Both the position numbers and the translations under genes were made by a program. Source: Candidatus Liptonbacteria bacterium (GTDB lineage: Bacteria > Patescibacteriota > Minisyncoccia > UBA6257 > 2-01-FULL-56-20). Taken from it: 64,000 nucleotides of DNA. The notes beneath the pieces are model-generated. The model was not told the origin of the DNA. It saw only the letters and a program-made list of their open reading frames with translations, and ran no database searches. The stretch covers positions 541 to 64,540 of the forward strand of contig JACQKU010000011.1 in assembly GCA_016204335.1 (NCBI GenBank), written 5' to 3'. Within the stretch, counting starts at the first letter, position 1. Every line of letters starts with the position of its first letter. Shown here one piece after another: positions 3,748 through 62,798 of this stretch.

Positions 3748-4170
3748 ATGGTTCCTATAAATTATTTAGCAGTGCTCGTTGCGGCAATCGCGAGCATGGT
3801 ATTGGGATTCTTGTGGTACGAACAGCTGTTCGGAAAATATTGGATGCAGCTTATGGGATTCACTTCGGAATCGATGGCGGAAGCGAAAAAGAAAGGAATG
3901 ACGATGCAATATTCCCTGATGACCGTCGGTTCGCTTGTGATGAGTTACGTGCTTGCCAACGCCGTCATCTTCGGGAGCGCCTACTTAGGGGCAACCGGAA
4001 TAACTGCCGGCATTATGGCCGGATTTTGGAACTGGCTCGGCTTCATCGCGCCGGTGACGCTCGGTTCGGTTATCTGGGAAGGAAATTCATGGAAGCTCTG
4101 GGTTCTCAACAACGGATACTATCTTGTTTCGCTCTCCGTAATGGGAACGATTCTTTCGGTCTGGAAATAA
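3748..4170 (+). CDS. DUF1761-like integral membrane protein
   Basis: 140 aa, 4 predicted TM segments, YEQLFGKYWMQLMGF motif typical of DUF1761. Confidence 0.55.
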   Translation: MVPINYLAVLVAAIASMVLGFLWYEQLFGKYWMQLMGFTSESMAEAKKKGMTMQYSLMTVGSLVMSYVLANAVIFGSAYLGATGITAGIMAGFWNWLGFIAPVTLGSVIWEGNSWKLWVLNNGYYLVSLSVMGTILSVWK

Positions 4171-4217
4171 GCGGCTCCGGTATTGCGTTCGGTCGCGTCT
4201 CGCGATAAAATAAAAAC

Positions 4218-4703
4218 GTGAAATATATCGCAACGGTTATTGTCGTCGTTTTCATCTTGGGAGGATTGACATTCACATTTTTGGGAAATGGACCTGTTCA
4301 ACGGGAACAGCCCGAACCGGAACAAACGAGTGCGCCCGCTTCACAACCGCAAGAAACGCAAACCGAAAAAACTATGGAAAATAAATTGGTCATTGAAGAC
4401 ATAAAAGTTGGCGCGGGAGCCGAAGCAAAAACAGGAACTGCCGTTTCAGTTAACTACGCGGGAACGCTTTTAAACGGAGCGAAGTTCGACAGCTCGTACG
4501 ACCGCGGACAGCCGTTCTCATTCGCTTTAGGCGCAGGCCAGGTAATCCGGGGCTGGGATGAGGGAGTAGTCGGAATGAAAGTGGGCGGAAAAAGAAAGCT
4601 CACGATTCCGCCGGACTTGGCATACGGCGCGCAGTCTCCAAGCCCTTTGATTCCGGCAAATTCCACGCTTGTATTTGAGATTGAATTGCTGGAGGTAAAG
4701 TAA
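4218..4703 (+). CDS. FKBP-type peptidyl-prolyl cis-trans isomerase with N-terminal TM/signal anchor
   Basis: C-terminal FKBP domain: VNYAGTLLNGAKFDSSYDRGQPFSFALGAGQVIRGWDEGVVGMKVGGKRKLTIPPDLAYG. Confidence 0.85.
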   Translation: MKYIATVIVVVFILGGLTFTFLGNGPVQREQPEPEQTSAPASQPQETQTEKTMENKLVIEDIKVGAGAEAKTGTAVSVNYAGTLLNGAKFDSSYDRGQPFSFALGAGQVIRGWDEGVVGMKVGGKRKLTIPPDLAYGAQSPSPLIPANSTLVFEIELLEVK

Positions 4704-4889
4704 AATTAAATCGCGCCCTTATTTGTCCGGAGGACATAGACAACATCAAGAGCAATCCTGATTTTGTCGGGAAAACCATTTCGCATACTTTCTTATTCGC
4801 GCGCCTGCCAGCCGTAGCGTTCGCGAAGGAGGGAATAAGAAAGTATGAAACTGATAGCGTGTTTCCCAAATAAAATCAGGATTGCCTTT

Positions 4890-6941: not shown

Positions 6942-7096
6942 CTTATACTTCAAACCTTATATTTCAAACCTTATATCTTATACTTCAAACCTTATATCTT
7001 ATACTTCAAACCTTATACCTTATACTTCAAACATTATACTTCAAACCTTATATTTCAAACCTTATACTTCAAACCTTATACCTTATACTTCAAACA
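6942..7096. repeat. Tandem repeat array, unit ACTTCAAACCTTATA(T/C)CTTAT with variable 12-21 bp units, about 9 copies
   Basis: Direct reading: cttatacttcaaaccttatatttcaaaccttatatcttatacttcaaacc... contiguous, no spacers. Confidence 0.85.
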
Positions 7097-7111: not shown

Positions 7112-7148
7112 CGCTGTGACGCGTCACAGCGCTATGCCATGGCATAGC
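7112..7148. promoter_or_regulatory. Two abutting perfect palindromes CGCTGTGACGCGTCACAGCG and GCTATGCCATGGCATAGC upstream of typA
   Basis: Self-complementary on inspection; second belongs to the GCTATG...CATAGC motif family seen at 20334, 20526, 21112, 46193. Confidence 0.6.
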
Positions 7149-10276: not shown

Positions 10277-10310
10277 AACATTCTAACATTCTGCAGAATG
10301 TTAGAATGTT
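10277..10310. repeat. 34-bp perfect palindrome AACATTCTAACATTCTG|CAGAATGTTAGAATGTT (intergenic copy of the HSNILQNVRM palindromic element)
   Basis: Self-complementary; same core as in-frame copies in purB (26790-26821) and purL (31818-31849); central CTGCAG. Confidence 0.9.
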
Positions 10311-14379: not shown

Positions 14380-16161
14380 ATGAAGCCGGAAATACGGAGT
14401 TGTGAAAACTGTGATAGCCAGTTCACTATTGAGTCCGACGATTTTGCTTTTTATGAAAAAATCGACGTGCCGCCGCCGACATGGTGTCCCGAGTGCCGCA
14501 ACATAAGGAGAATGGCGTGGCGGGAGGAACGTTCGCTGTACCGCGGCACGTGCAAGCTCTGCAAAAAATCAATCATCAGCATACATTCGCCGGACGGCCC
14601 ATTTACCGTTTACTGCCGCGAATGCTGGAAATCCGACAAATGGGACCCGATGGATTACGGCCGGGACTACGATTTCAATCAACCGTTTTTTTCTCAATAC
14701 CGAAAACTTATGGAAGCCGTCCCCCGTCCCGCGCTCACCGGCATTAATGTAATAAACAGCGATTTTTCGCACGGATGCGAAAGCTGTAAAAACTGTTACT
14801 TCACCTTCTACAGCTGGCATTCTCAAGATTCGCAGTACTGCTATGGCCTCCTTCTCTCGCGAGACACCTACGATTCTTACGCTGTCGACAATTCGGACCA
14901 TGCTTACGAGTCGCTCCATTCCAATCGTCTCTATAAGGTTCGCTTCGGATACTTCGCAGATGATTGTCTTGACTCTTCTTTTCTTTTTGACTGCGTCGGC
15001 TGTTCGGATTGTTTCGGATGCGTAAATCTCCGAAAACAGAAATACTGCATGTTCAACGAGAAACTTTCAAAAGACGAGTACAGAGAGCAGATGGCATACT
15101 GGGATTTGGGAAGCTACGCGCGCCTGCAGGAAGCGAAAGAAAAGTTCCGTTCTATCTATCTTTCGACTCCACGCCGATTTGCCCATATACGAAATAGCCA
15201 GAACGTAACCGGCGATATTATCAGAGACGCAAAAAACTGCCAAACGTGTTTTACGGCTCTTGACGGCGTTCAGAACTGCAAATATGTATACACCGGCGGC
15301 TTGAATCTCAAGGATAGCTATGACGTGAGTGCCGGCGGAGACATGTCTGAACTGCTCTATGAAATTTACGGAGTCACGCAGTCCCAGCGATGCCTTTTTT
15401 CAGTGGGGGGAACCAATTCAATAGATACGCTCTATTGCGACTGGGCATATAACTCATCGAATCTTTTCGGATGTACGTCGTTGAAACATAAACGGTACTG
15501 TATCCTCAATAAACAATATAGCCGAGATGAATACGAAAAGCTTGTCGCCAAAATAAGACGGCATATGAACGAAATGCCTTATGTTGACCAAAAAGGACGA
15601 GAATACAAATTCGGTGAATTCTTTCCCGTGGAACTTTCCGCGTATGCCTATAACGAGACATTTTCATTCATATGGTATCCGAAAACAAAAGAAGAAACGC
15701 TCAAAGAAGGATGGAAATGGCAAGACCCCCAAGAACGTTCGTATCAGGTCACGGCGCGACCCGAAGATTTGCCTGACCATATCCGCGATGTTGCCGATTC
15801 CATTTTGAAAGAAACGGTTGGGTGTATGCATTTTGGGAAATGCAATGAACAATGCGCGACGGCTTTTCGCTTGACGACGGAAGAACTCGCTTTTTATCGC
15901 AAAATGAATATCGCTTTGCCTCGCCTGTGTCCAAACTGCCGATACGCCGAACTAAGGCGGTGGCGAAACAGCTTTCATTTGTGGAAAAGAAAATGCATGT
16001 GCTTGTCCTCTGAAGCTTTGGCGAAGGAGGATGCATACAAAAACACAATCTCGCATTTTCACGCCACCGATCCCTGCCCAAATGAATTCGAAACCACTTA
16101 TTCGCACGATAAGCCGGAAATCGTATACTGCGACCAATGCTATAAAGCTGAATTCTTATGA
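14380..16161 (+). CDS. Multi-zinc-ribbon Cys-rich protein of unknown function (homologous N- and C-terminal ribbon modules)
   Basis: 593 aa with at least 6 CxxC...CxxC units; N-term DFAFYEKIDVPPPTWCPECR mirrors C-term ELAFYRKMNIALPRLCPNCR; internal C-x2-C-x2-C repeats. Confidence 0.6.
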   Translation: MKPEIRSCENCDSQFTIESDDFAFYEKIDVPPPTWCPECRNIRRMAWREERSLYRGTCKLCKKSIISIHSPDGPFTVYCRECWKSDKWDPMDYGRDYDFNQPFFSQYRKLMEAVPRPALTGINVINSDFSHGCESCKNCYFTFYSWHSQDSQYCYGLLLSRDTYDSYAVDNSDHAYESLHSNRLYKVRFGYFADDCLDSSFLFDCVGCSDCFGCVNLRKQKYCMFNEKLSKDEYREQMAYWDLGSYARLQEAKEKFRSIYLSTPRRFAHIRNSQNVTGDIIRDAKNCQTCFTALDGVQNCKYVYTGGLNLKDSYDVSAGGDMSELLYEIYGVTQSQRCLFSVGGTNSIDTLYCDWAYNSSNLFGCTSLKHKRYCILNKQYSRDEYEKLVAKIRRHMNEMPYVDQKGREYKFGEFFPVELSAYAYNETFSFIWYPKTKEETLKEGWKWQDPQERSYQVTARPEDLPDHIRDVADSILKETVGCMHFGKCNEQCATAFRLTTEELAFYRKMNIALPRLCPNCRYAELRRWRNSFHLWKRKCMCLSSEALAKEDAYKNTISHFHATDPCPNEFETTYSHDKPEIVYCDQCYKAEFL

Positions 16162-18997: not shown

Positions 18998-20305
<1,308 letters not shown>

Positions 20306-20333
20306 TTAGTTAGTTGTGTAAGTTATACGCGCA

Positions 20334-20357
20334 GTGGTATGCTATAGCATACCACTC
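20334..20357. promoter_or_regulatory. 24-bp perfect palindrome AGTGGTATGCTATAGCATACCACT upstream of ahcY (putative operator)
   Basis: Self-complementary; shares GGTATGCTAT-GCATA core with the 41-bp repeats flanking the TrpR-like regulator. Confidence 0.5.
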
Positions 20358-20525
20358 ACAAACTCCCTTTCACCCTCACGCTCGGAGATTTCCCGTATTA
20401 TTAAACATAAAAAGCTACTTCATAAAATTCATATGTCCGGATGAACCTACCTCTGTATCTTGTTCACGTCCCGCGCTCCGAAAAACTTTAACACTATTGA
20501 CTATAAATTGACTATAATATGATGC

Positions 20526-20566
20526 CCGCTATGCCATAGCATAGCGGTATGCTATGGCATAGCGGG
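20526..20566. repeat. 41-bp palindromic repeat CCGCTATGCCATAGCATAGCGGTATGCTATGGCATAGCGGG, copy 1 (3' of regulator gene)
   Basis: Identical 41-mer also at 21112-21152; itself an imperfect palindrome built from GCTATG/CATAGC half-sites. Confidence 0.9.
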
Positions 20567-20574
20567 CGGAGAAA

Positions 20575-21093
20575 CTACTGTGGAATTGTAAACGTTCCGT
20601 ATTTTGTCCGCACCCTGCGTCCTGAAAAACCCCTCCCATTTCTCGACGACTGCGGGCCGGGCGAATATATTCTCTTCTTGCGTTCAGTTTTTCCCCGCTC
20701 ATAATAGCTCCTGTACTTTTTTTCGTTCAGCGCTTTTTTTATGCCGCTTATAGTCTGATGAGTAAGCCAAAGCTCTTCGCCGATTTTACGATAGCTCGTT
20801 CCTGCAAGAATGCGATCTATCGCGGCCGCCCGGCGCAGAAGAAGTGAACGCTCTTTGGCGGTAATAAGAAGTTCAAGTGCAGTCGAAAGTTTTTTCGGCT
20901 CTCGCAAAATTGTAAACTTTGCAATCAAAGTCCGCCAGACATTTTCTTCCCACGCTGAACGGGAAGAAAAACTTGCAAGGAGAGGTATACCACGAATCGC
21001 AGCCGCGGCCTCATTATTTCTCAGCTCTATTTTTTCTCCTGTTTTCTTCACGCGATTTTTTCTCCTGTTTTCTTCATCTCCTGTTTTCTTCAT
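20575..21093 (-). CDS. TrpR/YerC-family helix-turn-helix regulator with Lys/Arg-rich N- and C-terminal tails
   Basis: Central TAKERSLLLRRAAAIDRILAGTSYRKIGEELWLTHQTISGIKKAL resembles Trp-repressor/YerC HTH; 5' end contains three tandem copies of GAAAACAGGAG-ATG/GTG (RBS plus start); alternative in-frame GTG start at 21051. Confidence 0.6.
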   Translation of the reverse strand: MKKTGDEENRRKNRVKKTGEKIELRNNEAAAAIRGIPLLASFSSRSAWEENVWRTLIAKFTILREPKKLSTALELLITAKERSLLLRRAAAIDRILAGTSYRKIGEELWLTHQTISGIKKALNEKKYRSYYERGKTERKKRIYSPGPQSSRNGRGFSGRRVRTKYGTFTIPQ

Positions 21094-21111
21094 ATGATAG
21101 AGTATAGCATA

Positions 21112-21152
21112 CCGCTATGCCATAGCATAGCGGTATGCTATGGCATAGCGGG
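21112..21152. repeat. 41-bp palindromic repeat, copy 2 (immediately 5' of regulator gene start)
   Basis: Exact match to 20526-20566; ends 19 nt upstream of ATG 21093. Confidence 0.9.
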
Positions 21153-21201
21153 TAGCCCTGTATTCGGCAGTTCCGTGTTTGGTAGTTCCACGACTATAAT
21201 T

Positions 21202-21250
21202 CCATTGCTATAGTTCCATGGCTATAGTTTCCATTGCTATAGTTCCATGG
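21202..21250. repeat. Tandem 14-15 bp repeats CCAT(T/G)GCTATAGTT x4 at the 3' end of the PfkB kinase gene
   Basis: ccattgctatagttccatggctatagtttccattgctatagttccatgg; on minus strand each unit reads ATGGAACTATAGC (ATG...TAG mini-frame); overlaps stop codon of 21237..22226. Confidence 0.8.
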
Positions 21251-22226
21251 CTGACAGCTCCAAGGAAGGCAATTCCATCCCAAAACTCTCTTTGTAGCGA
21301 CTGCGCGCTTCGGAAAAAGAAATCCGGTATTCCTGCGTGCCGTATGCTTCGATGGCTCGCGCGGCGATGACGCCCGCGAACCGTCCCGCTGTTTCAAGCG
21401 GCCAGCCCGCAAGAAACCCTTTAATAAAGCCCGCGCGATACGCGTCGCCCGCGCCTGTCGGGTCAACGACATCCTTTGCCCGCGCCGGAGGCACCTTAAT
21501 TATTTTTTCTTTTGTCCGTACGCTGGAACCCTTTTCGCCGAGCGTGGTAATAAGAATTTCCGAACGCTCGAGCACATCTTCTTCCGTCCAGCCGGTTTTT
21601 TCCAAAACCAAAGCAAGCTCGTAATCGTTGGCGATAAAGACATTCGCGCCGGTTATTCCGTTCCGGATGTCATCCGGGGAAAGCGCGGGAATCTGCTGGC
21701 CCGGGTCGAAAATAAAAGGAATGTTCTTTTTCCGATACAGCGCGGGCAATCGGCGCATGTCGTCAATGTTTCCCGGAGCGATTACGGCAAACGAACCGGC
21801 CGGAATCTGCTCCTCTTTTATTCCACACGAGTGCGCCATCGCGCCGATGGAAAGCGCCGCAATCTGATTGTCGGCGCGGTCAGTCATAATATTCGAAAGA
21901 GTCGTGGGTTTGTCGGAAACTACATGGACAAAATCCAAACTTACTCCGCTCTTTTCCAGCCGCTCGCGATAATGCCCGAAATCCCTGCCGGCGCTCGCGA
22001 GTACCGCGGGTTTTTCTCCGAGAAGCGCGAGACCGTAAGCGATATTCCCCGCCGTGCCGCCGAAATGCTCGCGAAGATTTTCAGCGACAAAACTTAAATT
22101 CAAAGCATGAACTTTGCCGGGCATAATGTGGTCGCTGAAGCGGCCCGGGTATTCCATTATTTTGTCGTACGCGAGAGAACCGGAAACTAAGATGCGCATA
22201 CCGGATAGTATAACTCCAATAAACAA
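21237..22226 (-). CDS. PfkB-family carbohydrate/nucleoside kinase (ribokinase or adenosine kinase-like)
   Basis: GGTAGNIAYGLALLG and DPTGAGDAYRAGFIKG motifs of PfkB family; adjacency to ahcY suggests adenosine kinase role (inference). Confidence 0.8.
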   Translation of the reverse strand: MFIGVILSGMRILVSGSLAYDKIMEYPGRFSDHIMPGKVHALNLSFVAENLREHFGGTAGNIAYGLALLGEKPAVLASAGRDFGHYRERLEKSGVSLDFVHVVSDKPTTLSNIMTDRADNQIAALSIGAMAHSCGIKEEQIPAGSFAVIAPGNIDDMRRLPALYRKKNIPFIFDPGQQIPALSPDDIRNGITGANVFIANDYELALVLEKTGWTEEDVLERSEILITTLGEKGSSVRTKEKIIKVPPARAKDVVDPTGAGDAYRAGFIKGFLAGWPLETAGRFAGVIAARAIEAYGTQEYRISFSEARSRYKESFGMELPSLELSAMEL

Positions 22227-26085: not shown

Positions 26086-27576
26086 CTATAACTCTCCACT
26101 CGCAAGTTTCTCGGCCAATCCGACATAGCTCTCCGGCGTGATTTTAAGGAGTTCTTCTTTTACTTGCGCCGACACATCGAGCCCGTTTATAAACGCCCGC
26201 ATGTCTTCAATCGTTACTGTTTTGCCGCGCGTGAGTACTTTCAGTTTTTCATACGGCATCGCAACGCCCTCGCGCCTTAAAACTGTTTGAATCGCCTCGG
26301 CGATGACTTCCGGATGAAGGTTCAAATCTTCGAGAACTTTTTCTTTGTTCGCTTGGATTCGCCCGAGTCCGTTCAAAAGATTTGCGTAAGCGACAACGGA
26401 ATGCGCGAGCGCAACGCCGAAATTCCGCTCCACCGTCGAATCGGAAAGGTCGCGCTGGAGGCGCGATATAGGCAGTTTCGACGAAAAATAACTAAATAAC
26501 GAATTCGCAATACCTAAATTTCCTTCACTATTTTCGAATTTTATCGGATTTATTTTGTGCGGCATCGTGGATGAGCCGATTTCCCCTTCGTTCGCTTTCT
26601 GCGCAATCCAGCCGTCGCTGATGTAGCGCCAGATATCCTGATTGAAATCAATGAGAATCGTATTTATGCGGCGGAGTAAATCGAAAAGTTCGACGTATGT
26701 GTCGTGCGGTTCGATTTGCGTCGTGAAAAGATTCGGTTCGAGCGTTATGGTTTTTTTTTGATTTTGCGCGGCTCCGCCCGCACCGGACGACATTCTCACA
26801 TTCTGCAGAATGTGAGAATGTTCCCGCAAGCGTGTGACGAAATTTTTCGTGAAATCAAGCCAATCAACTTCAGGATACGCAACAACATTCGCGCTGTAAT
26901 TGCCGGTTGCTCCGTTCAATTTGACGAGAATGCGGAATGAACGCAGTTGCCCGATTTGCCGTTCCAACCGCGCGGCAAAAACCTTGAATTCTTTCCCGAA
27001 TGTCGTAGGAGTCGCCGGCTGGCCGTGCGTCCGCGCGAGCATCGTCAAATTTTTATATTCTTTCGCGAATTCCTCCAATTTCGCGGTTATTTTTTCGAGA
27101 AGCGGCAGAATCACTTTTTCGATTCCGTCGCTCAACATAAGCCCGTAGGCAAGATTATCAATGTCTTCCGAAGTAAGCGCGAAATGAATCCATTCAAGGC
27201 AGTCCTTGAGAGAAGTATTCTCCAACTGGTCGCGCATAAAATATTCTATCGCTTTCACATCGTGGTCCGTGGCTTTGATATTTTTATATCCCGCTCGCTC
27301 GATGTCTTTTATGATTTTTGCATTCTCGAGCGTAAGTTCGGAAAGATTTCGAATCAATGATTTTTCCTCTTCGGAAAAATCGCGGAGGCCTGCCCGCTCA
27401 CCAAAATTTTTGGTGTGAGGGCCGATGTCGGGATGCTCGGACAGCGCGATAAGATATTCCGCTTCGACAAAAAGCCGATAGCGCATCATTCCCGCCTCGC
27501 TGAAAATCTTCGCGAGCGGTTCCGTATATTCCCTATATCGCCCGTCAATCGGGCTTATTGATTCGAGAAAATTCAT
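26086..27576 (-). CDS. purB: Adenylosuccinate lyase carrying an in-frame palindromic-element insertion
   Basis: 496 aa; fumarate-lyase signature GSSTMPHKINPIKFEN; about 24 extra residues (REHSHILQNVRMSSGAGGAAQNQKK) between conserved FVTRL and TTQIEPHD blocks relative to E. coli PurB (from memory). Confidence 0.9.
   Translation of the reverse strand: MNFLESISPIDGRYREYTEPLAKIFSEAGMMRYRLFVEAEYLIALSEHPDIGPHTKNFGERAGLRDFSEEEKSLIRNLSELTLENAKIIKDIERAGYKNIKATDHDVKAIEYFMRDQLENTSLKDCLEWIHFALTSEDIDNLAYGLMLSDGIEKVILPLLEKITAKLEEFAKEYKNLTMLARTHGQPATPTTFGKEFKVFAARLERQIGQLRSFRILVKLNGATGNYSANVVAYPEVDWLDFTKNFVTRLREHSHILQNVRMSSGAGGAAQNQKKTITLEPNLFTTQIEPHDTYVELFDLLRRINTILIDFNQDIWRYISDGWIAQKANEGEIGSSTMPHKINPIKFENSEGNLGIANSLFSYFSSKLPISRLQRDLSDSTVERNFGVALAHSVVAYANLLNGLGRIQANKEKVLEDLNLHPEVIAEAIQTVLRREGVAMPYEKLKVLTRGKTVTIEDMRAFINGLDVSAQVKEELLKITPESYVGLAEKLASGEL
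26790..26821. repeat. 32-bp perfect palindrome ACATTCTCACATTCTG|CAGAATGTGAGAATGT inside purB, in frame (encodes HSHILQNVRM)
   Basis: Self-complementary; differs from copy at 10277 by a compensatory pair (A>C with T>G) that preserves the palindrome. Confidence 0.9.
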
Positions 27577-42520: not shown

Positions 42521-42739
42521 TTACAACAGCCCCAACTTCCTGAGCCGTTCCCGCTCCGCTTTCTTCTTCGTGCGGTGAAGGGCTGAGACCCGCATCCTCC
42601 GTTTGCTGGTTGGTCGGGTGCGGAACCTTCTTTTTCTGAATTCTTTCACGACGCCGCTCTGTTTCACCCGTTTTGAAAACCGGTACAGAAGAGTGCTCCC
42701 TGATTCACCTTCTCGTTTTCTTGATTGTATGGCTGCCAT
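42521..42739 (-). CDS. rpsU: 30S ribosomal protein S21
   Basis: RFSKRVKQSGVVKEFRKRRFRTRPTSKRR...KKKAERERLRK matches S21; ATG at 42739 (tracker start 42751 is TTG). Confidence 0.75.
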   Translation of the reverse strand: MAAIQSRKREGESGSTLLYRFSKRVKQSGVVKEFRKRRFRTRPTSKRRMRVSALHRTKKKAERERLRKLGLL

Positions 42740-42744
42740 GTTAA

Positions 42745-42830
42745 AATGCAAATATCAAAATGGAAAATGACAGATAAAAATGTAAAAATTTTGAATTTTA
42801 CATTGTCATTTTGAACTTTGATTTTTAATT
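42745..42830. repeat. AT-rich inverted-repeat intergenic element, family 2 (copy 1 of 3)
   Basis: caaatatcaaaatggaaaatgacagataaaaatgtaaaaa...tttacattgtcattttgaactttgatttttaatttttga; related copies at 56149-56262 and 62685-62798. Confidence 0.7.
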
Positions 42831-43238
42831 TTTGATTTTCTTTATACGTTCTGCAATTTCACGGATTGTTTCTTTCGGCTGATTATCGACCACTGAATGG
42901 ATTGAACCGCCGCCGTCATTTTGAAATCGCGGAATGATATGAATATGAAAATGCTCAATGGTCTGGCCGCTCGCTTTGCCCTGATTGATGCCGATTGTAA
43001 ATCCATCCGGCGCAAGAACCTTCTGCAATAATTTCGTCACATTCCTGACTGCGGAAAAGAGCGGCGCAAGTTCGCCTTCTCCCAAATCAAGAATGGTTTC
43101 GGCGTGTTTCTTCGGCATTACCATGCTGTGCCCAAGGGCAATCGGATGAATATCAAGTATCGCGAACGCGCCGTCATCCTCATAAATGATTTCTGACGGA
43201 ATCTCCTTATTGCCGATTTTGCAAAAGAGGCAGTCCAT
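42825..43238 (-). CDS. HIT-family nucleotide hydrolase
   Basis: Histidine triad HFHIHIIPR. Confidence 0.85.
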   Translation of the reverse strand: MDCLFCKIGNKEIPSEIIYEDDGAFAILDIHPIALGHSMVMPKKHAETILDLGEGELAPLFSAVRNVTKLLQKVLAPDGFTIGINQGKASGQTIEHFHIHIIPRFQNDGGGSIHSVVDNQPKETIREIAERIKKIKN

Positions 43239-43243
43239 AATTT

Positions 43244-43355
43244 TAGAAATTGGTTGTTAGAAAATAGATATTGGTAATGTAAAATGGAAATTAGAAATTA
43301 ATTGATTTTCTATTTTCCAGTTTCTAATTTCTATTACTATTTTCCAATTTCCAAA
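43244..43355. repeat. AT-rich inverted-repeat intergenic element, family 1 (copy 1 of 2)
   Basis: gaaattggttgttagaaaatagatattgg...attttctattactattttccaatttccaa; second copy 54843-54929 with same termini. Confidence 0.7.
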
Positions 43356-46192: not shown

Positions 46193-46222
46193 CGAGCCGC
46201 TATGACGCGTCATAGCGGCTCG
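46193..46222. promoter_or_regulatory. 30-bp perfect palindrome CGAGCCGCTATGACGCGTCATAGCGGCTCG downstream of pth
   Basis: Self-complementary; CCGCTATG...CATAGCGG half-sites identical to those of the 41-bp regulator-flanking repeat. Confidence 0.6.
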
Positions 46223-50048: not shown

Positions 50049-53000
50049 CTACTGTACCAATCCCACGGCATTAATCGTGATTGTGGAAGTGGCCACGACC
50101 GTCCCGTTGTTGCTCGCCAAAGGATTGTAGGAATAAACATCGCCGCCGAATATGTCCGCCGCCAAGTTGCTTGAAGGATATGTCGCAGTCGGCGTTCCGG
50201 CGCAGGTTGAGTTCCCTGCCCATACTGCAACGCTCCCGCCGCCGGAATCGTAATCGACCGGCACTTGCCCCGAATAAGCGGAGATGTCCAACGTTGAAAG
50301 GGTTCCGCAAGAGATGACCGTGCCGGCGCTGTTCCGAACCGCCCACGAACCGCCTGCCGGCAAGCCGTTCAACGTAATAATCGGCGAGCTGTAAAACGCG
50401 AAATTGTCGTATGTCATAGTGACGCCGCCGGCGGCGGACGATGCCGCAAGCCCCAAAAATCCCGCTTCGGAAAGCGAGAAATCCGCGGTGGAAAGCGCCG
50501 CGCCGCCGTTGACCCACGACTGGAGCGATGTGCCGGAAATATAGCCGCGGAACTGGTAAAAAGTGTCCGCGGCAAATGTAAACGCCGAAGAGATAATCGT
50601 TCCGTATGAAGAGGAAATTGTCTTGCCGATTAATTCCGCGCCGTTTTGGAAATCGCCGCCCGCAATATGATATTTGTTCGCGCCGCTATCCGCGCGCAAA
50701 ACACCGCCGTTTTTTCCCGCGCTTGCTCCAACCGCGCTCGCTTTCATTTTAAACTCAATTACCCCGTTCGTCCGGTTCTGGCCTGCAACGTGAATCTGCG
50801 CCGAAGAACCGGAAGCGGGCGTCACCGCAAGCCGGCTCGCGGAAACGCTCCAGCTTCCCGAATCCGTCGTAAAGGCGCCGGAGGTTGTCGTGAAACCGTT
50901 GCACGTTCCGGAATCCGTGAAAGTATTGAACCCTGCGGGGTCCTTTGCCGAGGCCTTCCAGTAATACGTCGTGTTCTGGCTCAAGGCGTTTTGCGCCGTG
51001 TAAGTCCCCTGCGCGCCAGAAGCGTAGCAGTCGTTCGCGCTCACGCATGTCGCGTTCTGCCCCGACCAGCCGGTTTGCGATACGCTTTGGTCGTTTGTTT
51101 GAAAAACGGCGGTACACGCGGAATTCGAATAAATCGTCACTTTATATTGCAGATTATCCGAATTAATGTCTGTAGCCGTCATTTTAAAAACCGGCAAGAC
51201 GCTTAAGTTTTGCGAGTCGTTTGCTGGAGAGTCCTGTGAAGGCGGGTTCGGCGGGCTGCTTGCCGCGCTGGTCGTCACGCTGGAACTCGCGCTATACGGC
51301 CCGTCGCCGGAAGCGTTCGTGGCGCGTATGCGGTAGTAGTATGTCGTTCCGGGCGCAAGCCCGCTGTCGTTCGTGGAGGTGTTCGTTATGCCGGAGGCGA
51401 TCTGCGCGAAAACCTGGCTCGAAGTGGCTCTTTCGACTTTATACGAAGTTGCGCCTCCGGCAGGCGCGGCCCAGTTTACGGTAAGTGATACCGCGGAAAC
51501 ATTCTCATAGGCGGGAGTTCCCGGAGTTCCAGGCACGGTCATCCCGCTTCCCGCCGCGTTCAATGCCGTCTCAATCAAATCCTGGTTTCTCGATTTAACT
51601 TTGAACGCGTAGGTGGCGTTTGATTGAAGATTTTTTATTTGCAGAGTATCGAGCGTGGCATCCGACATCCAAACGGCCGCCGTGCTCGTAGCTCCGACAG
51701 ATGTCACCCAAAAACCCTGCCAGTTGGGGTCGCTCGGACTCGTCGATGAAGTGAAGACGGCGAACTGGGTTGTGGGAGAAGATGCCGGGTTGCCGTTCTC
51801 GGCGTTTGTGAAATTGAGAGTGGAAGTTGTTGTTAATGAAAAGGTTGCTGTTCCGGGAGTATTGGCAAGCGTGTAGATAGAACTCGAAGCGGAAGCGGTG
51901 CCGGTGTTTGGAGTTGGAGAGACGGAATCCCTCGCCTGAACTTGATAGGCGTAGCACTTGTTGGCTTGTAGATTGGAGTTTGTGTATGAGGTTGAAGTTT
52001 GCCAGTTTGATGACGCTCCTCCTGTGCCGCCGTTCGATGAACAAGTATTAAAAGTGAAAAGATAGTTTACGGGCGTAGTAGAATCGGAGCCGGTTGTGGC
52101 AGTCATGGAAATTGATGATGTGGATGCCGCGGCTGGAGCGGACGAAAAAGTCATCGGGTTCGGAGTTGGAGGAGATGCGTCTAGTGTCGTGAACGAAACC
52201 TCGCCGCCGTATGAATACCCCGCGCTGTTATGCGCGTATGCGCGGGTGTAGTAGGTGGTACTGCCGGTGAGTCCAGTCAGCCCTTTGGTGTATGCCCCTG
52301 CGCCGAAAGCTCCCGCGTCGCTCGCTGAACTCGCGTAGCCAGAGGAACCCGGCGCGACGTTGCCGGGCAAAGCACGCGAGGCGGTATCATAAACAAAACC
52401 TCTTGTATCAGCATTAGCCCCGCCTGTAGCCGTGATGTTGCCGTTGCCAGTCGCGGTTGTTGCGGTGATAGATGAAACGGCTTGGGTCGTGACGGTGGGA
52501 AGATTCGCCAACGTCGTGAACGAAACCTCGCCGCCGTATGAATACCCCGCGCTGTTATGCGCGTATGCGCGGGTGTAGTAGGTGGTTGCGGCATTCATGC
52601 TATTGAGTGTCGCCGTGAAGGCACCTGTCCCAAAATCACCGGCGGTGATAACAACGGACTCATATCCAGAGGAATACGTGGGGACGTTGCCAGGCAAAGC
52701 ATGCGATGTGGTGCTGTAGACAAAGCCGCGCGAATCCGCATTCGCTCCTCCTGTAGCCGTAATGTTACCGTTGCCGGTCGCGGTTGTTGCGGCGATGGAT
52801 GAGGCGGCTTGGGTGGTGACGGTCGGGACGGTGACGGAGACCGTGTAAGTGAGGACGACGCGCCCGGCGGCGCCGGCGCCACCATTAACAGCGAGAGCCG
52901 CGCCCCCGCCACCCCCACCGGGCGCATTTCCTGGCCCGGCGGCACCACCACCGCCAGTCCCACCGCCACCCCCGCCATTTCCTTCTCCTATGCCACCAGT

Positions 53001-53609
53001 ACCCGCCACGAAACTTGCTCCATTGCCACCATTACCTCCGTTTGCAGAACCAGTAGCAGACCCACCACCGCCACCGCCACGAGTACCAGAACCAGTGAAC
53101 CCCGCGCCACCATTACCACCGCTGAATTTTGTCGCTCCAATACCACTTGCAGCCGCACCACCCGTTCCGGGCTCTGCTACCCCACCGCCCTTCGCCAACA
53201 CTGTCGCCTCTCCTACAGCGCCTGGGCTAAACCAACTATCTCCACTTGGGGTACCAAGGACTACTCCACCCGCTCCCACGGTAAGACTATAATTCTGTCC
53301 TGGCGTCACGGTTACTGTTGCCTTAGAATATGCGCCACCGCCAGCCCCGGTACCACCGGCGCCCGACACGCCACCCGCGCCGCCGCCGCCCCATGCCTCA
53401 ACCGTTACACTCGTAACGCCCGCCGGGGCCGTCCAGGTGACAGAGGAATTGAAAGTTTCAACGATTGCATGGGCGTCAGGCACTCCGTAAAAAATGCCTC
53501 CGTATACAAAAAAGAGTAAGACAAGAGCGCGGAAAAGATTAAATTTACAACGGCGAAATTTTTTCAAGATAAATTGACTTAATAATTTTTTTAAAAAATC
53601 ACTGGGCAT
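50049..53609 (-). CDS. Giant secreted Gly-rich / FN3 / LamG-like domain protein, probable pilus-associated adhesin
   Basis: 1186 aa; signal anchor, GGxGG-rich N-terminal region, two near-identical about 105-aa tandem domains, FN3 domain (TSYKVERATSS...YYYRIRATNASG), C-terminal concanavalin-like domain. Confidence 0.7.
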   Translation of the reverse strand: MPSDFLKKLLSQFILKKFRRCKFNLFRALVLLFFVYGGIFYGVPDAHAIVETFNSSVTWTAPAGVTSVTVEAWGGGGAGGVSGAGGTGAGGGAYSKATVTVTPGQNYSLTVGAGGVVLGTPSGDSWFSPGAVGEATVLAKGGGVAEPGTGGAAASGIGATKFSGGNGGAGFTGSGTRGGGGGGSATGSANGGNGGNGASFVAGTGGIGEGNGGGGGGTGGGGAAGPGNAPGGGGGGAALAVNGGAGAAGRVVLTYTVSVTVPTVTTQAASSIAATTATGNGNITATGGANADSRGFVYSTTSHALPGNVPTYSSGYESVVITAGDFGTGAFTATLNSMNAATTYYTRAYAHNSAGYSYGGEVSFTTLANLPTVTTQAVSSITATTATGNGNITATGGANADTRGFVYDTASRALPGNVAPGSSGYASSASDAGAFGAGAYTKGLTGLTGSTTYYTRAYAHNSAGYSYGGEVSFTTLDASPPTPNPMTFSSAPAAASTSSISMTATTGSDSTTPVNYLFTFNTCSSNGGTGGASSNWQTSTSYTNSNLQANKCYAYQVQARDSVSPTPNTGTASASSSIYTLANTPGTATFSLTTTSTLNFTNAENGNPASSPTTQFAVFTSSTSPSDPNWQGFWVTSVGATSTAAVWMSDATLDTLQIKNLQSNATYAFKVKSRNQDLIETALNAAGSGMTVPGTPGTPAYENVSAVSLTVNWAAPAGGATSYKVERATSSQVFAQIASGITNTSTNDSGLAPGTTYYYRIRATNASGDGPYSASSSVTTSAASSPPNPPSQDSPANDSQNLSVLPVFKMTATDINSDNLQYKVTIYSNSACTAVFQTNDQSVSQTGWSGQNATCVSANDCYASGAQGTYTAQNALSQNTTYYWKASAKDPAGFNTFTDSGTCNGFTTTSGAFTTDSGSWSVSASRLAVTPASGSSAQIHVAGQNRTNGVIEFKMKASAVGASAGKNGGVLRADSGANKYHIAGGDFQNGAELIGKTISSSYGTIISSAFTFAADTFYQFRGYISGTSLQSWVNGGAALSTADFSLSEAGFLGLAASSAAGGVTMTYDNFAFYSSPIITLNGLPAGGSWAVRNSAGTVISCGTLSTLDISAYSGQVPVDYDSGGGSVAVWAGNSTCAGTPTATYPSSNLAADIFGGDVYSYNPLASNNGTVVATSTITINAVGLVQ

Positions 53610-54935: not shown

Positions 54936-56147
54936 TTAGAATTGACCGGTCAGCTGATAAATCGGCACGATGATGGCAAGCGCGATTACCGCGACCAATA
55001 TACCCATAATGAGAAGGAGGACCGGTTCGAGAAACGAAAGCAAGGAATGTATGCTGGATTCCACGCTTGACTGGTAAAAATCAGCGAGCGTGGAAAGAAC
55101 CTCCTCAAGATGTCCCGCTTTTTCGGAAATGGCGACTAAATTCGTGACGACTTTCGGAAATGCCTCTTCGCGGCGAAACGCCTCTCCGATTGTAAGGCCT
55201 TTTGCCAGGCCTTCGTTCGCGACCCTCATCAAGCTCGTCCGGAATTTTTCCGAACCGACGACTTCCGCGGTAATGGTTGCCACATGAATAATCGGCAGGC
55301 CGGCCGCCATCAGCGCGCTGAATGTGGAAGCAAATCGTTGAATCGCTATGTCCCGGTAAATTTTTCTGACGAGAGGCAAACGGGAAAGCATCTGGCTCAT
55401 AACCCGCCGCCCCGTGGCATTTTTCCAAAAAAAGTAAGTCGCAAACCCGACAACTGAAATCAGAATGGAGGCCAGAACGACAATATTGTCTCCTATAAAA
55501 AGACCGGCGGTGAACACGACTCTTGAAAAAAGCGGCGGCTTTATGTCGGTTTGCAGAAAAGCGGTGGCGATTTTCGGCAGCGCGAACGTAACCAGAAAAC
55601 CGATGATGACAACCGACATCGCCGAAAGAATAATCGGATAGACCAGCGCCGAGCGAATCTTACCTTTTAACTCGGCTTCCCGCTGGAGCGAAACGCTTAA
55701 GTCCTCGAATGTTTGCTGGAGATTGCCGGACGTCTCGGACGCCTTCACCAGATTGATAAACACGACTGAAAATACTTTGGGATGCTCCGCAAAGGTCTGA
55801 TAAAACGGCCTGCCTCTTGTAAGATTTTCCCGTATCTCGAGAAGAAAGGTCTTCATTGCCGGCTTGTCGAAATCGGCTATCAGGATATTGACGGCGGACA
55901 AAAGGTCGGTCCCCACCTTAAGCATCAGAGACAAATACTTGGTCAGGAAAATTTTATCGGTTGTGTTGATGTCTTTGGAGAACCTGCTGCGGGACGTACG
56001 CAGGGGTTTTACCGAAAGCGGACGCATCCCTTTTGCCACGAGGTACTGAAGCGCCTGATTCAGATTGTCAGCCTCCAGCTGGTCTTCCGTGATTTTTCCG
56101 TTTTTGTCGGACGCGGAGTAGTGGTACAACATAAATTTAAAAATCAA
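54936..56147 (-). CDS. pilC: Type IV pilus / T2SS platform protein (PilC/GspF family)
   Basis: 403 aa, two T2SSF domains, 3 TM. Confidence 0.85.
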   Translation of the reverse strand: MIFKFMLYHYSASDKNGKITEDQLEADNLNQALQYLVAKGMRPLSVKPLRTSRSRFSKDINTTDKIFLTKYLSLMLKVGTDLLSAVNILIADFDKPAMKTFLLEIRENLTRGRPFYQTFAEHPKVFSVVFINLVKASETSGNLQQTFEDLSVSLQREAELKGKIRSALVYPIILSAMSVVIIGFLVTFALPKIATAFLQTDIKPPLFSRVVFTAGLFIGDNIVVLASILISVVGFATYFFWKNATGRRVMSQMLSRLPLVRKIYRDIAIQRFASTFSALMAAGLPIIHVATITAEVVGSEKFRTSLMRVANEGLAKGLTIGEAFRREEAFPKVVTNLVAISEKAGHLEEVLSTLADFYQSSVESSIHSLLSFLEPVLLLIMGILVAVIALAIIVPIYQLTGQF

Positions 56148-56148
56148 A

Positions 56149-56262
56149 TATCAAAAATAAAAATGACAAATCAAAATGTAAAGAATTAATTTTACCGTTT
56201 AAGCTTTTTGCATTCCGCTCTTTCATTTTGCATTTTGATTTTTACAGTTTGAATTATTCACG
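56149..56262. repeat. AT-rich inverted-repeat intergenic element, family 2 (copy 2)
   Basis: aaatcaaatatcaaaaataaaaatgacaaatcaaaatgtaaa...cattttgcattttgatttttacagtttga. Confidence 0.7.
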
Positions 56263-58936: not shown

Positions 58937-59234
58937 TTCGCGTTCGTAAATTTCTCACAGATTCAATTGAGAAGATTATATCATATTAAAAAAGAGGTTG
59001 GTTGTGGATAACTCCGCTTCGGTTTTCGTTTTGCCAGGCGCGGCCTCTGCCTCCCTGCAGGCAGGCAGAGCTCCGGCGGCGAGGCGGCCTGTATCCCTGC
59101 CTGCCGGCAGGCAGGTCGGCGAGCAAATCGCCTGCGGCGATATCAAGCTTGCTCCCCTCCGATAACGCCCGGCAAAACGAAAACCTGCGCTATTGGCGGA
59201 CAAACTTCTGAGCTTACAAGATAATTATATATTG

Positions 59235-61852: not shown

Positions 61853-62693
61853 TTAACAAATTTTCAAGCTGAAGCCGGGGATTAAGATTCAAGTGGTCGG
61901 TATTCCGCCGTAAGTCAAGAATCTTGTGCCACAATTTGAGATTGATTTTTGCGGGAATTTCTTTATTTGAAAGAATCATCAAAAGGATTTCCAGAAATTC
62001 GCTAAGATTGAAATCATCCGGCTCTATAAGAGTTTTTATCATCTCGCGGCGCGCCCAAAACCCGGATTTGAGAAACGCTTCGCCGGATTTTCGCATCTCG
62101 CGAAACCGTCCGTCAAAAAGCATTTTCCAGGCAAGCCCCGGCTGGCCCGACGACAATTTTGCGATTGCTCCGGCTTCTTGCCCCTTGCCGAATTTTTCTT
62201 TGAGCCAATTCTCGATAAGCGCGGAATGAACCGGTGAAAAATAGATTTTCTGGAGCCGCGATTGAAGCGTCGGTAAAAGTTTTTCGGGGTCGCGGGCAAC
62301 GAGAATCAGAAGCGAGGATTCCGGCGGTTCTTCGGCGACTTTCAAAAGCGCGTTTTGCGCTTCCACGGTCATTGCTTCGACATCGTTGATAACGACCGTT
62401 CTTTTTTTGCTTACAACCGGCTTTTGCCACAAAAAATTCCTGATTCGGCGGATTTCGTCGATTCCGACGGTTCCTTCCTCATTCGGTTCGAGCAATAGCG
62501 AGTCACGGAGCATATTCGATTCTTCAAAATCTCCGGTTTCAAGAAAATTCGCGAAAGAAAGAGCGAAAAGCTTCTTGCCTGCGCGGGCGGGTCCGCAGAA
62601 AAGATACCCGTGCGAAAGTTCGTTTCTTTCGGCAAGACCTTTGAAATCTTCAACCAGTTGTTCGTGGCCGATTAACATAAATTCAAAAATCAA
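61842..62693 (-). CDS. holB: DNA polymerase III delta-prime subunit-like AAA+ protein
   Basis: LFCGPARAGKKLFALSFANFL P-loop-like, clamp-loader box, 283 aa. Confidence 0.7.
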   Translation of the reverse strand: MIFEFMLIGHEQLVEDFKGLAERNELSHGYLFCGPARAGKKLFALSFANFLETGDFEESNMLRDSLLLEPNEEGTVGIDEIRRIRNFLWQKPVVSKKRTVVINDVEAMTVEAQNALLKVAEEPPESSLLILVARDPEKLLPTLQSRLQKIYFSPVHSALIENWLKEKFGKGQEAGAIAKLSSGQPGLAWKMLFDGRFREMRKSGEAFLKSGFWARREMIKTLIEPDDFNLSEFLEILLMILSNKEIPAKINLKLWHKILDLRRNTDHLNLNPRLQLENLLNEV

Positions 62694-62798
62694 ATATCAA
62701 AAATAAAAATGACAAATCAAAATGTAAAAATGAATTTTATCGTTTGGGCTTTTTGCATTTTACATTTTCATTTTGCACTTTGATTTTTACAGTTTGAT
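62685..62798. repeat. AT-rich inverted-repeat intergenic element, family 2 (copy 3)
   Basis: aaaatcaaatatcaaaaataaaaatgacaaatcaaaatgtaaaaatg...cattttgcactttgatttttacagtttga; near-identical 5' arm to copy at 56149. Confidence 0.7.

Follow-up and report, generated by a model that had tools for sequence, protein, structure and literature searches.

A TrpR-fold protein gene of candidate phyla radiation bacteria bracketed by palindromic sites: probable autoregulation and REP-like placement of further copies

We analyzed a stretch of 64,000 nucleotides from a Candidatus Liptonbacteria metagenome-assembled genome (MAG; contig JACQKU010000011.1), hereafter the window, in which the gene for a 172-residue helix-turn-helix (HTH) protein is flanked on both sides by the same palindromic 41-mer. 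Our main conclusion, held as a whole with moderate confidence, is that the gene product belongs to a subfamily of TrpR-fold HTH proteins specific to the candidate phyla radiation (CPR; Paceibacteria type), whose cognate site would be a palindrome of 20–24 bp, YRC-TATG-N6-CATA-GYR, bound by the protein as a dimer. The upstream copy would fill the -35 and spacer positions of an extended -10 promoter, where bound protein would occlude RNA polymerase and bring about negative autoregulation. It is likely that the protein binds as a dimer and that, from the proximal site of the upstream 41-mer, it represses its own promoter, from which a leaderless mRNA would start; likely, too, is binding of the downstream 41-mer by the same protein, because the downstream copy covaries with the upstream copy in every lineage. 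An earlier reading made from the letters of the window (the sequence-only reading) had called the upstream copy operator-like and proposed autoregulation; this now has strong comparative support, from a -10 geometry shared by 21 loci and from covariation between protein and site.

The bracket, its promoter, and the protein

The 41-mer CCGCTATGCCATAGCATAGCGGTATGCTATGGCATAGCGGG occurs exactly twice in the window, both times on the plus strand (20526–20566 and 21112–21152), as identical direct copies 586 bp apart; the chance expectation for such a repeat, from 100 shuffles, is none. The identical palindromic repeats that the sequence-only reading had seen on either side of the gene are thus real. 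The downstream copy begins 8 nt after the stop codon, and the upstream copy ends 18 nt before the ATG, in the location first described though not at the 19 nt given then. Each 41-mer consists of two overlapping 20-bp palindromes with the core given above, their centers 18 bp apart, and Tandem Repeats Finder (TRF) reports about two head-to-tail copies of an 18-nt unit in each. In a second reading, each is a hairpin-type palindrome with arms of 18–20 nt and a 4-nt nonpalindromic center, the arms of the downstream copy being 20 nt long (20524–20543 and 20548–20567). As its exact 32-nt core had no match in the metagenome collection, the 41-mer as such does not occur there as a dispersed repeat.

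To follow the bracket across the family, we used a gene-centered sample of 37 loci from GTDB species genomes plus four distinct loci added through exact protein look-ups, of which 35 were usable. We counted 20-bp palindromes that have no more than one mismatched pair and lie up to 200 nt ahead of the gene or up to 120 nt past its stop: Of the 35 loci, 31 have one upstream, 28 have one downstream, and 25 have both, against a background of 0.36 palindromes per kb in which the family sites themselves are included (p ~1e-32). The flanking sequence is not conserved, and the neighboring genes differ among loci. The downstream neighbor is convergent in at least eight loci, and the 3' copy therefore cannot be the operator of that neighbor. 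The palindrome comes in variants that differ among genomes (CTATGCTATAGCATAG, CTATGACGCGTCATAG, CTATGACATGTCATAG, CTATGATATATCATAG, GGTATGCCGCGGCATACC, GATATGACGCGTCATATC, CTTTGCTACAGCAAAG, and others); within one locus the upstream and downstream variants agree, and many genomes carry two paralogues, usually with different variants. The same bracket is present in loci found independently via the motif (L087, L098, L141, L122, and L149). It should be added that several independent assemblies (L001–L003 and L005) have a contig end right within the palindrome on the 3' side of the TrpR-like gene. De Bruijn assembly seems to break at perfect palindromes, and the copy number of the palindromes in MAGs is therefore probably underestimated.

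The position of the upstream palindrome is tied to that of a promoter element. On the gene strand, a TAnnnT hexamer stands 16–17 bp from the center of the proximal palindrome in 21 loci (16 bp in 19, 17 bp in two), with a background of 2.6% at those offsets (p ~1e-26, binomial test entered as 22/35), with TG ahead of it in 19 of the 21, the form of an extended -10 element. The upstream spacer is divergent in at least six of these 21 loci. Downstream copies (5/36) and remote copies (2/18) do not share this geometry. The -10 element is separated from the ATG by 7 nt in the window, L001, L004, and L007, and in seven loci including the window the palindrome center lies at -28/-29 from the ATG, followed by the -10 element, 6–7 nt, and the ATG. 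The operator covers about -38 to -19, the place of a -35 element, and the promoter has no -35 element because the operator occupies that position. Comparison thus places at the gene's own promoter a palindromic operator of about 20 bp, the type of operator known for this family. Because the spacing of palindrome, -10 element, and ATG is conserved, the mRNA of the gene is probably leaderless or nearly so, starting at ATG 21093, and the protein probably represses its own gene by steric hindrance; the promoter geometry is seen in the loci themselves, whereas repression and the start of transcription are what we infer from it. A generic sigma-70 and terminator scan of 19900–21700 gave no enrichment.

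Covariation is the best available argument that the protein reads the palindromes. For 34 loci grouped by the first two bases of the central hexamer, we calculated the mutual information of each alignment column with the site group. The top column, with z = 10.5, is residue 131, which follows directly on the recognition helix and is the x of YRSY-x-ERGK; the second is residue 117, inside the recognition helix, with S versus G or A. Arginine at 131 goes with TATGA in 13/13 loci, asparagine with TATGCCGCGG (TATGCC(GCGG)) in four, and leucine or an aromatic residue with TATGCT. The pairings of arginine with AC and of an aromatic residue with CTATGG each occur in both subfamilies, those with and those without a 10-residue insertion. 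The closest comparison is with the syntenic orthologue in L007, 77% identical to the protein of the window: The window has Y131 with CTATGG/CCATAG, L007 has N131 with CCGCGG/CCGTAG, and the operators are identical apart from these central hexamers, the upstream 41-mer matching base for base elsewhere. The covariation with residue 131 supports direct binding of the palindromes by the protein. The conserved C-terminal beta-hairpin was also considered as the reader of the central hexamer and was set aside; unlike residue 131, it shows no clear covariation with the hexamer class.

The protein itself is made up of a helix at the N-terminus, a core that resembles TrpR and contains the HTH (residues ~101–124), a basic linker, and a conserved C-terminal beta-hairpin. 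A 72%-identical paralogue (MBI4085684.1), which has N131, is encoded on another contig of the same MAG. An AlphaFold (AF2) model built from 53 sequences has a pLDDT of 85.8, and a Foldseek search of the PDB gives, as its best 30 matches, nothing but E. coli TrpR and TrpR-like proteins (3frw, 3g1c, and 3kor), with probabilities of 0.9–1.0, TM scores of 0.62–0.72 (target-normalized), and E-values of only 0.09–1. Sequence profiles lead to 3kor, a putative Trp repressor of the YerC type, as the top PDB match (E = 2e-4), and many homologues have a precomputed PF01371 match that is flagged weak. The earlier assignment as a TrpR/YerC-like regulator is borne out by the predicted fold.

The protein family is small and well separated, with only 325 clusters (50% identity) recovered when 1.84 billion representatives were searched exhaustively by profile. 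Named hosts of homologues are nearly always CPR/Patescibacteria (Paceibacterota and Jorgensen-, Lipton-, Colwell-, Wolfe-, and Brennerbacteria); other labels are some Saccharibacteria MAGs and two strays (Spirochaetia and Deltaproteobacteria) on short MAG contigs. Typical members have 130–157 residues and a variable N-terminus, with the conserved motifs P..YSSRxAWE..W and, in the HTH, ...SYRxIGEELWLSPQTISxIKKAL; the tail, YRSYxERGKTERKK...RxVRTKYGTxxxP, is very conserved. A limited collection of searchable papers yielded no account of this CPR family or of its palindromes. Viral contigs hold no relatives of the protein, and there were no PADLOC or PHROGs matches, which leaves a phage or defense origin unsupported.

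Table 1. Coordinates of the gene, its putative operators, and neighboring features in the window
Feature	Position	Strand	Details
TrpR-fold protein gene, 172 aa	20575..21093	-	Open reading frame (ORF); NCBI MBI4085962.1, annotated "hypothetical protein", Candidatus Liptonbacteria MAG
Extended -10 element (TGnTAnnnT)	21101..21109	-	TGCTATACT; hexamer starts 16 bp from proximal operator center, ends 7 nt before ATG 21093
Upstream 41-mer, putative double operator	21112..21152	.	Arms of 18 nt
Proximal (promoter-side) 20-bp palindrome of upstream 41-mer	21113–21132		CGCTATGCTATGGCATAGCG, gene strand
Second palindrome of upstream 41-mer	21131–21150		Imperfect
Downstream putative double operator	20524..20567	.	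44-nt hairpin-type palindrome enclosing the 41-mer 20526–20566; 7–8 nt past stop
11-nt tandem repeat, two copies	20496..20517	-	TTATAGTCAAT, gene strand; -10-like hexamers TATTAT and TATAGT, 7–10 nt past downstream operator pair
Single perfect 24-bp palindrome	20333..20356	.	AGTGGTATGCTATAGCATACCACT; 67 nt upstream of ahcY ATG
Remote site, two differing variants	7112..7148	.	CGCTGTGACGCGTCACAGCG + GCTATGCCATGGCATAGC; abutting 20-bp palindromes, centers 18 bp apart
Remote site, perfect 30-bp palindrome	46193..46222	.	Between convergent pth (+) and a 516-aa ORF (-); nonpromoter position
Tandem duplication of coding 5' end	21036..21093	-	16-nt unit (ATGAAGAAAACAGGAG), same unit, 10-nt spacer, same unit from GTG
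Out-of-frame 9-codon mini-ORF, MKKTGEKIA*	21048..21077	-	From second ATG; TGA overlaps GTG 21051
ahcY, S-adenosylhomocysteine hydrolase (downstream neighbor)	18998..20266	-	Pfam AdoHcyase 1e-57; candidate regulation target
PfkB-family kinase gene (upstream neighbor)	21237..22226	-	Pfam PfkB 1e-42

The palindrome away from its own promoter

Beyond the bracket, the window holds family sites at three locations in its 64 kb. They are the related palindromes that had been noted near ahcY, typA, and pth; all are real and belong to the same family (table 1). The 7112–7148 pair lies in a 900-bp spacer between a DEAD-box helicase gene and typA. The single site ahead of ahcY is missing from the orthologous spacer of L007. 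Also in front of ahcY, the first hexamer of the 11-nt tandem repeat, TATTAT, stands at offset 17 from the operator center, and L007 has a comparable duplicated TATGAT at offset 17; the repeat may be the ahcY promoter under the same operator. The downstream 41-mer, which lies right before these -10-like hexamers that are turned toward ahcY, may in this lineage also gate ahcY, which has its further single site.

Two side observations concern the makeup of these sites. The 7112–7148 pair combines an ACGCGT-type and a CCATGG-type palindrome at the same 18-bp spacing as in the 41-mers, and in the window's own operators a TATGCC half is joined to a TATGCT half; the MAG has paralogues with N131 and Y131. 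The mixed pair, the hybrid operators, and the two paralogue types together give hints of cross-regulation or heterodimers.

The wider distribution was surveyed in a motif-centered sample, in which a metagenome collection was searched for the commonest variant, YGCTATGCTATAGCATAGCR (at least 120 loci, 727 kb); all counts from this sample refer to the matches listed. The family gene is present in 13/120 loci, and in 10 of these 13 the site is within ~110 nt of it, the exceptions being an eight-site array that runs out from the gene (L054) and single sites 1.3 kb (L157) and 2.1 kb (L080) away. We classified the 110 other sites, each at least 250 nt from a contig end. Co-directional spacers hold 53 of them (background 329 spacers in the same loci), convergent spacers 29, in 25 distinct spacers (background 94), and divergent spacers four (background 87), with 11 inside called ORFs and 13 at contig edges. 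The deviation from background is significant (chi-square p = 8e-5; convergent versus divergent p = 1e-4). Within co-directional spacers, the median distance is 85 nt to the upstream stop, often 5–10 nt, versus 139 nt to the next start. A -10-like hexamer at the characteristic offset accompanies 14/110 sites, and beyond 1.5 kb from the anchor sites there is one site every ~40 kb, which amounts to tens per Mb-sized genome.

A promoter regulon for the remote sites is rejected by these gene-context statistics together with the low number of sites with the -10 geometry. Outside its own promoter, which is the exception, the palindrome behaves by position like a low-copy REP-like (repetitive extragenic palindromic) or gene-boundary element. 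Of the two options left by the sequence-only reading, a small regulon or a REP-like family, the second is the better supported: Divergent spacers are avoided, and convergent spacers and 3' ends are favored. That reading had also named, as a sign of REP-like repeats and against operators, hundreds of sites irrespective of promoters; the sites found are tens and not hundreds, and they are indeed independent of promoters.

Under our proposal, the downstream copy of the bracket would be an instance of the commonest use of the palindrome, the marking of gene 3' ends and spacers. At 3'-end sites, the bound protein and the RNA hairpin would together delimit transcription units as a roadblock or insulator, and the copy in the promoter would match the level of protein to the number of sites. 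This role at transcription-unit boundaries is speculative and, although we prefer it, unproven. In its fullest form, the proposal would be a dedicated boundary-marking system of ultra-small CPR genomes. The protein would block or insulate transcription in both directions at the 3' ends of tens of genes, with a preference for convergent junctions and with help from the RNA hairpin of the site; its level would follow the number of sites; and each genome would have several orthogonal pairs of paralogue and palindrome, whose specificity depends largely on residue 131, outside the classical recognition helix. In this form it is possible but doubtful. Other possible explanations of the genome-wide role are a chromosome-organization protein with tens of palindromic sites, a protein of the Tus or RTP kind whose gene adjoins one of its own sites, and selfish repeats of the REP type that have an HTH protein as partner.

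Several points weigh against our overall interpretation. Binding, repression, and the transcription start are alike things that we infer from sequence comparison. The protein misses the cutoffs of the curated models of the family, with 25.0 bits against a gathering cutoff of 27 for Pfam Trp_repressor (PF01371; E = 2e-5) and 15.4 bits against 67.25 for NCBIfam TrpR (TIGR01321); the modeled TrpR-type helical fold with a helix-turn-helix holds, in a protein that lies below the curated sequence threshold for membership. Phylogeny partly confounds the covariation, in which about 5–6 independent changes were counted, and the possible link to ahcY comes from two genomes. A simple operator would not account for the perfect symmetry, which runs past the conserved core into arms that are not conserved: Of 67 perfect 20-bp sites, 35 have at least three extra pairs (expected 1.2) and 22 at least five, giving a length of at least 30 bp (expected 0.1), with some of 34–42 bp. 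This suggests selection for the stability of a hairpin or cruciform, or else a process that generates palindromes; that the arms were extended through template switching at hairpins, or that the core was inserted into older hairpins, is conjecture. Some family genes stand by arrays of 3–8 sites in AT-rich noncoding DNA (L026, L054, L012, and L037), for which a simple operator likewise would not account. Against the boundary role in particular, no U-tract follows the palindromes, and the bias toward 3' ends could reflect selection against strong sites in promoters and coding sequence.

Two of the arrays can be described further. In L026 (800–1673) and L054 (288–1832), seven to eight palindromes ~110–230 bp apart lie in T-rich noncoding DNA upstream of the family gene. 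Duplication of a 128-bp unit accounts for part of these arrays, and in that of L026 one palindrome is of the variant that belongs to the genome's other paralogue.

We consider it unlikely that the palindromes are selfish or neutral REP-like repeats which the TrpR-like gene attracts or tolerates, either without binding them or as their guardian, in the fashion of REP-associated tyrosine transposase (RAYT) genes. REP elements and RAYT genes were reportedly treated by Nunvar in 2010 and by Bertels and Rainey in 2011. REPs are extragenic palindromes of hundreds of copies at 3' ends and convergent junctions, and a RAYT is a gene for a Y1 (IS200/IS605-like) transposase flanked by REPs. The palindromes studied here likewise lie at 3' ends and convergent junctions, and their associated gene is flanked by copies; among the matches listed, only 13 of the 120 loci have the family gene, and the 25 convergent versus four divergent spacers, with a background of 94:87, are a classic REP distribution. 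Many copies are perfect, with arms extending in nonconserved sequence; palindromic DNA occurs inside ORFs, namely in the N-terminus of the L007 orthologue and, as a different palindrome, in purB of the window; and arrays grow through local duplication. What speaks against this explanation is, above all, the 16-bp -10 geometry fixed in 21 loci, at least six of them with a divergent upstream spacer, which builds one copy into the promoter of the gene, and the covariation of the hexamer variant with residues 131 and 117. Furthermore, the palindrome center is always symmetric, as expected of a duplex site bound by a dimer, the density is only about one per 40 kb, or tens of copies per genome among the matches listed, and the partner is a TrpR-fold HTH protein without any other domain and not a Y1 transposase. 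No transposase or Y1 domain was noted near the sites in an unsystematic look at neighbors (Pfam marks in L001–L007 and ORF lists by extra sites). With a conserved center and variable arms, the palindromes are also the reverse of miniature inverted-repeat transposable elements, a class that, like insertion sequences, is marked by conserved terminal inverted repeats, target-site duplications, and a transposase. Neither class fits the palindromes, given these arms and the lack of a transposase among the neighbors looked at.

Still less probable, in our view, is that the palindromes are mainly nucleic-acid hairpins, acting as bidirectional factor-independent terminators or stabilizers of mRNA 3' ends, with only a secondary link to the protein. 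Their predicted folds are very stable, at -41 kcal/mol for the downstream 41-mer (z = -9) and -38.6 kcal/mol for the upstream one (z = -6); sites lie 0–26 nt past the stops of the HTH genes and of genes of a Cys-rich protein family described below; and they are enriched between convergent genes, with extended arms that vary in sequence and yet stay paired. However, a U-tract is lacking: In 320 palindrome flanks, at least five T in eight positions were found in 10.6% versus 8.4% in the background, which is no enrichment, and neither direct reading of the sequence nor the terminator scan finds a T-run after the downstream copy. Canonical intrinsic terminators are rejected on this ground; the hairpin is present, but the U-tract and T-run are not, and the scan makes no call. 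Nor does an RNA hairpin need a conserved 20-bp core or a self-complementary loop, whereas the center of every site, the would-be loop, is itself symmetric; this fits a dimer on duplex DNA, because a dimer needs such a center and a hairpin does not. The hairpin explanation moreover leaves the protein covariation unexplained, and the promoter-proximal copy is located upstream of the predicted start of transcription.

The 5' end of the gene and other features of the window

The gene begins with three copies of RTGAAGAAAACAGGAG (21093–21078, 21077–21062, and 21051–21036; TRF period 16, 100% matches), in the gene-strand order ATGAAGAAAACAGGAG ATGAAGAAAACAGGAG AAAAAATCGC GTGAAGAAAACAGGAG AAAAAATAGAG... 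The sequence-only reading correctly described three tandem copies with the starts ATG, ATG, and GTG, and a second ATG that is out of frame and ends after nine codons, overlapping the GTG. It took them for a duplicated Shine–Dalgarno sequence plus start codon; the repeat is instead a start codon plus codons 2–6, as GAAAACAGGAG comes after each start codon. The duplication adds 16 + 26 = 42 nt, or 14 codons, and leaves the first ATG in frame with the gene. Homologues begin with MKKxGxKI..., which aligns with the third copy. The L007 protein has its MKKIGEKI start next to the promoter, 7 nt past the -10 element, where the window has its first ATG. The former start is now the GTG at 21051, in frame and coding an internal valine. 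Translation from the first ATG fits because the former start became GTG and the insertions sum to a multiple of three.

The triple start is best read as an in-frame 42-nt slippage duplication that lengthens a variable N-terminus, a region that is hypervariable and prone to slippage across the family, with an insertion of 57 residues in L007. That insertion (4056–4260) contains palindromic DNA, cgccatagcggctatggcg, and a 33-nt tandem duplication (4680–4760) spans the stop of the L007 gene. With GGAG 10 nt upstream, GTG 21051 could give rise to a minor form of 158 residues; the mini-ORF probably is not translated, its GGAG abutting the second ATG with zero spacing.

That the three start modules form a device for translational coupling or attenuation, as had been proposed, with the nine-codon ORF controlling initiation at the GTG, is very improbable. 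The overlap of the mini-ORF's TGA with the in-frame GTG (GTGA) and the GGAG 10 nt before that GTG would suit such a device; but the arrangement is unique to this genome, orthologues having a single promoter-proximal start, the first ATG lies at the orthologues' start position 7 nt from the -10 element (probably leaderless) and is in frame thanks to the 42 nt added, the second ATG is without usable Shine–Dalgarno spacing, and the region is A-rich and slippage-prone, with different repeats and an insertion in L007. We see no evidence for a coupling or attenuation role. Least credible of all is a reading of the gene as a cassette that can be excised or moved, with the direct 41-mers as its sites of recombination or mobility: Although the two repeats are direct, match without a difference over 41 bp, and stand 586 bp apart, gene neighborhoods vary among loci with many genomes holding two paralogues, and the symmetry of arm, 6-bp center, and arm resembles recombinase core sites, no recombinase is encoded, the protein of ~130–170 residues has no catalytic domain and no relatives in viral contigs, PHROGs, or PADLOC, the two flanking pairs of L007 are not identical, and most palindromes stand alone at the 3' ends of other genes.

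As for the neighboring genes, the synteny pfkB–HTH–ahcY is common only to the window and L007, and a methyl-cycle regulon of ahcY and pfkB is for this reason rejected as a general property of the family. The wider region of the window is rich in genes of purine metabolism. Scanned in full with Rfam (at gathering threshold) and for tRNAs, the window yielded no known RNA gene or riboswitch, including upstream of ahcY. The window (20267–20310) and L007 (4855–4900) share, without a difference, a 29-nt stretch just before the ahcY ATG (ATCTGGATTTTTCGTTAAAAAACCGTTAGAGT, in which the last T marks the first mismatch), while the remaining spacer cannot be aligned between the two; the stretch has no Rfam match and may be a conserved leader or translation signal. 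Immediately upstream of the upstream 41-mer, the window has tandem repeats with a period of 14/29 nt (21183–21262, about five units) that span the pfkB stop, each unit containing CTATAG, the center of the commonest operator variant; in L007, the homologous stretch still codes for the 3' end of pfkB, whose stop is inside the operator.

The Cys-rich family is represented in the window by a 593-residue protein with an N-terminal zinc ribbon (14380–16161, plus strand), which has more than 6000 homologues at 52–85% identity in Paceibacteria-type CPR, often in tandem arrays of paralogues. A palindrome stands 17–26 nt past the stop of such genes in about nine loci, and they adjoin the TrpR-like gene in at least eight; the gene in the window has no adjacent family palindrome. 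Examined as a possible mobilizing enzyme, the 593-residue protein had no Pfam match and no PDB match by sequence or fold.

Other repeats in the window differ from the operator palindromes. A second palindrome family, the perfect 32-bp ACATTCTnACATTCTGCAGAATGTnAGAATGT, occurs at 10278–10309 and 26790–26821 and also in L041 (14503), L025 (7693), and L038 (11689). The first copy is intergenic, whereas the second is inside the purB ORF (26086–27576), whose Lyase_1 match is split in two, and could represent a palindrome inserted in frame, a situation that recalls the Rickettsia palindromic elements. Yet another palindrome that recurs, CCTGCCTGCCGGCAGGCAGG with close variants, is found at 59096–59115 and in L025 (13227 and 20244), L031 (598), and L040 (15386), and distant CPR genomes thus have it in common. 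Intergenic tandem arrays of 7-nt (also 14/21-nt) units lie at 6942–7095, 42738–42839, 43257–43354, 56139–56252, and 62679–62800; the last two pair an AAAAATC-type array with a different, T-rich one (TTTTGCA or TTTTCA type). Lastly, a 327-bp tandem repeat of two copies with 77% matches (52186–52828) lies inside a 1186-aa ORF (50049–53609).

Known systems and what the family may mean

Two groups of known DNA-binding proteins bear on the sites at gene ends. Tus with TerB in E. coli and RTP with IRI in B. subtilis have about ten mostly nonpromoter sites, each keeping its own gene under one autoregulating site, and the Ter sites are asymmetric and polar. The protein described here resembles them as a presumed site-specific binder with mainly nonpromoter sites and a gene beside its own site; it differs in its fold and in having perfect palindromes, and nothing points to a replication terminus near its sites. 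The mTERF and Reb1/TTF-I proteins are eukaryotic or organellar roadblock terminators, which bind duplex DNA sequence-specifically at the 3' ends of transcription units. The likeness lies in a putative duplex-DNA binder at 3' ends, for which termination would be the hypothesis here, and the fold is unrelated.

Closer relatives are found among the repressors that share the fold. Like E. coli TrpR (PF01371), the protein is small and presumably dimeric, with a palindromic operator of ~20 bp overlapping its own promoter; unlike it, the protein has a subthreshold sequence match, an extra N-terminal helix, a basic linker, and the conserved C-terminal beta-hairpin, the half-site is TATG and not GNACT, a second copy lies past the stop, most sites are away from promoters, and no Trp genes are involved. 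TrpR and HisR operators are 20-bp palindromes, with the HisR consensus cacTTTA-N6-TAAAgtg, and about half of the hisR genes have an upstream site and are autoregulated (PMC9413887). HisR (B. subtilis YerC) shares with the sites described here the 20-bp layout of 4 + N6 + 4, the cac/gtg flanks, which many of our sites have as CACTATG-N6-CATAGTG, a lineage-specific consensus, and frequent autoregulation (PMC9413887). The relationship is nevertheless distant (3kor, E = 2e-4), the half-site here is TATG versus TTTA, the central hexamer is conserved and specific to the paralogue, and the distribution of sites is REP-like; in the neighborhoods annotated, those of the sites in the window and in L007, no his genes turned up. 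The family appears to act like an autoregulated repressor of the TrpR/HisR type at its own promoter and to resemble REP/RAYT systems in the placement of its palindromes.

CPR/Patescibacteria have tiny genomes with few regulators and are mostly uncultured, and their control of transcription is almost unknown experimentally. The family offers them a widely conserved and testable pair of protein and site, with a predicted promoter architecture (an extended -10 element, an operator replacing the -35 element, and a probably leaderless mRNA), a candidate specificity residue, and natural orthogonal variants; such variants of operator and protein are also possible parts for synthetic biology. A TrpR-fold protein with most of its sites at gene ends would represent either a new use of the fold, in boundary or roadblock function or in chromosome organization, or a REP-like family with an HTH partner. 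If the boundary system is true, it would be a bacterial counterpart of terminators of the mTERF or Reb1/TTF-I type.

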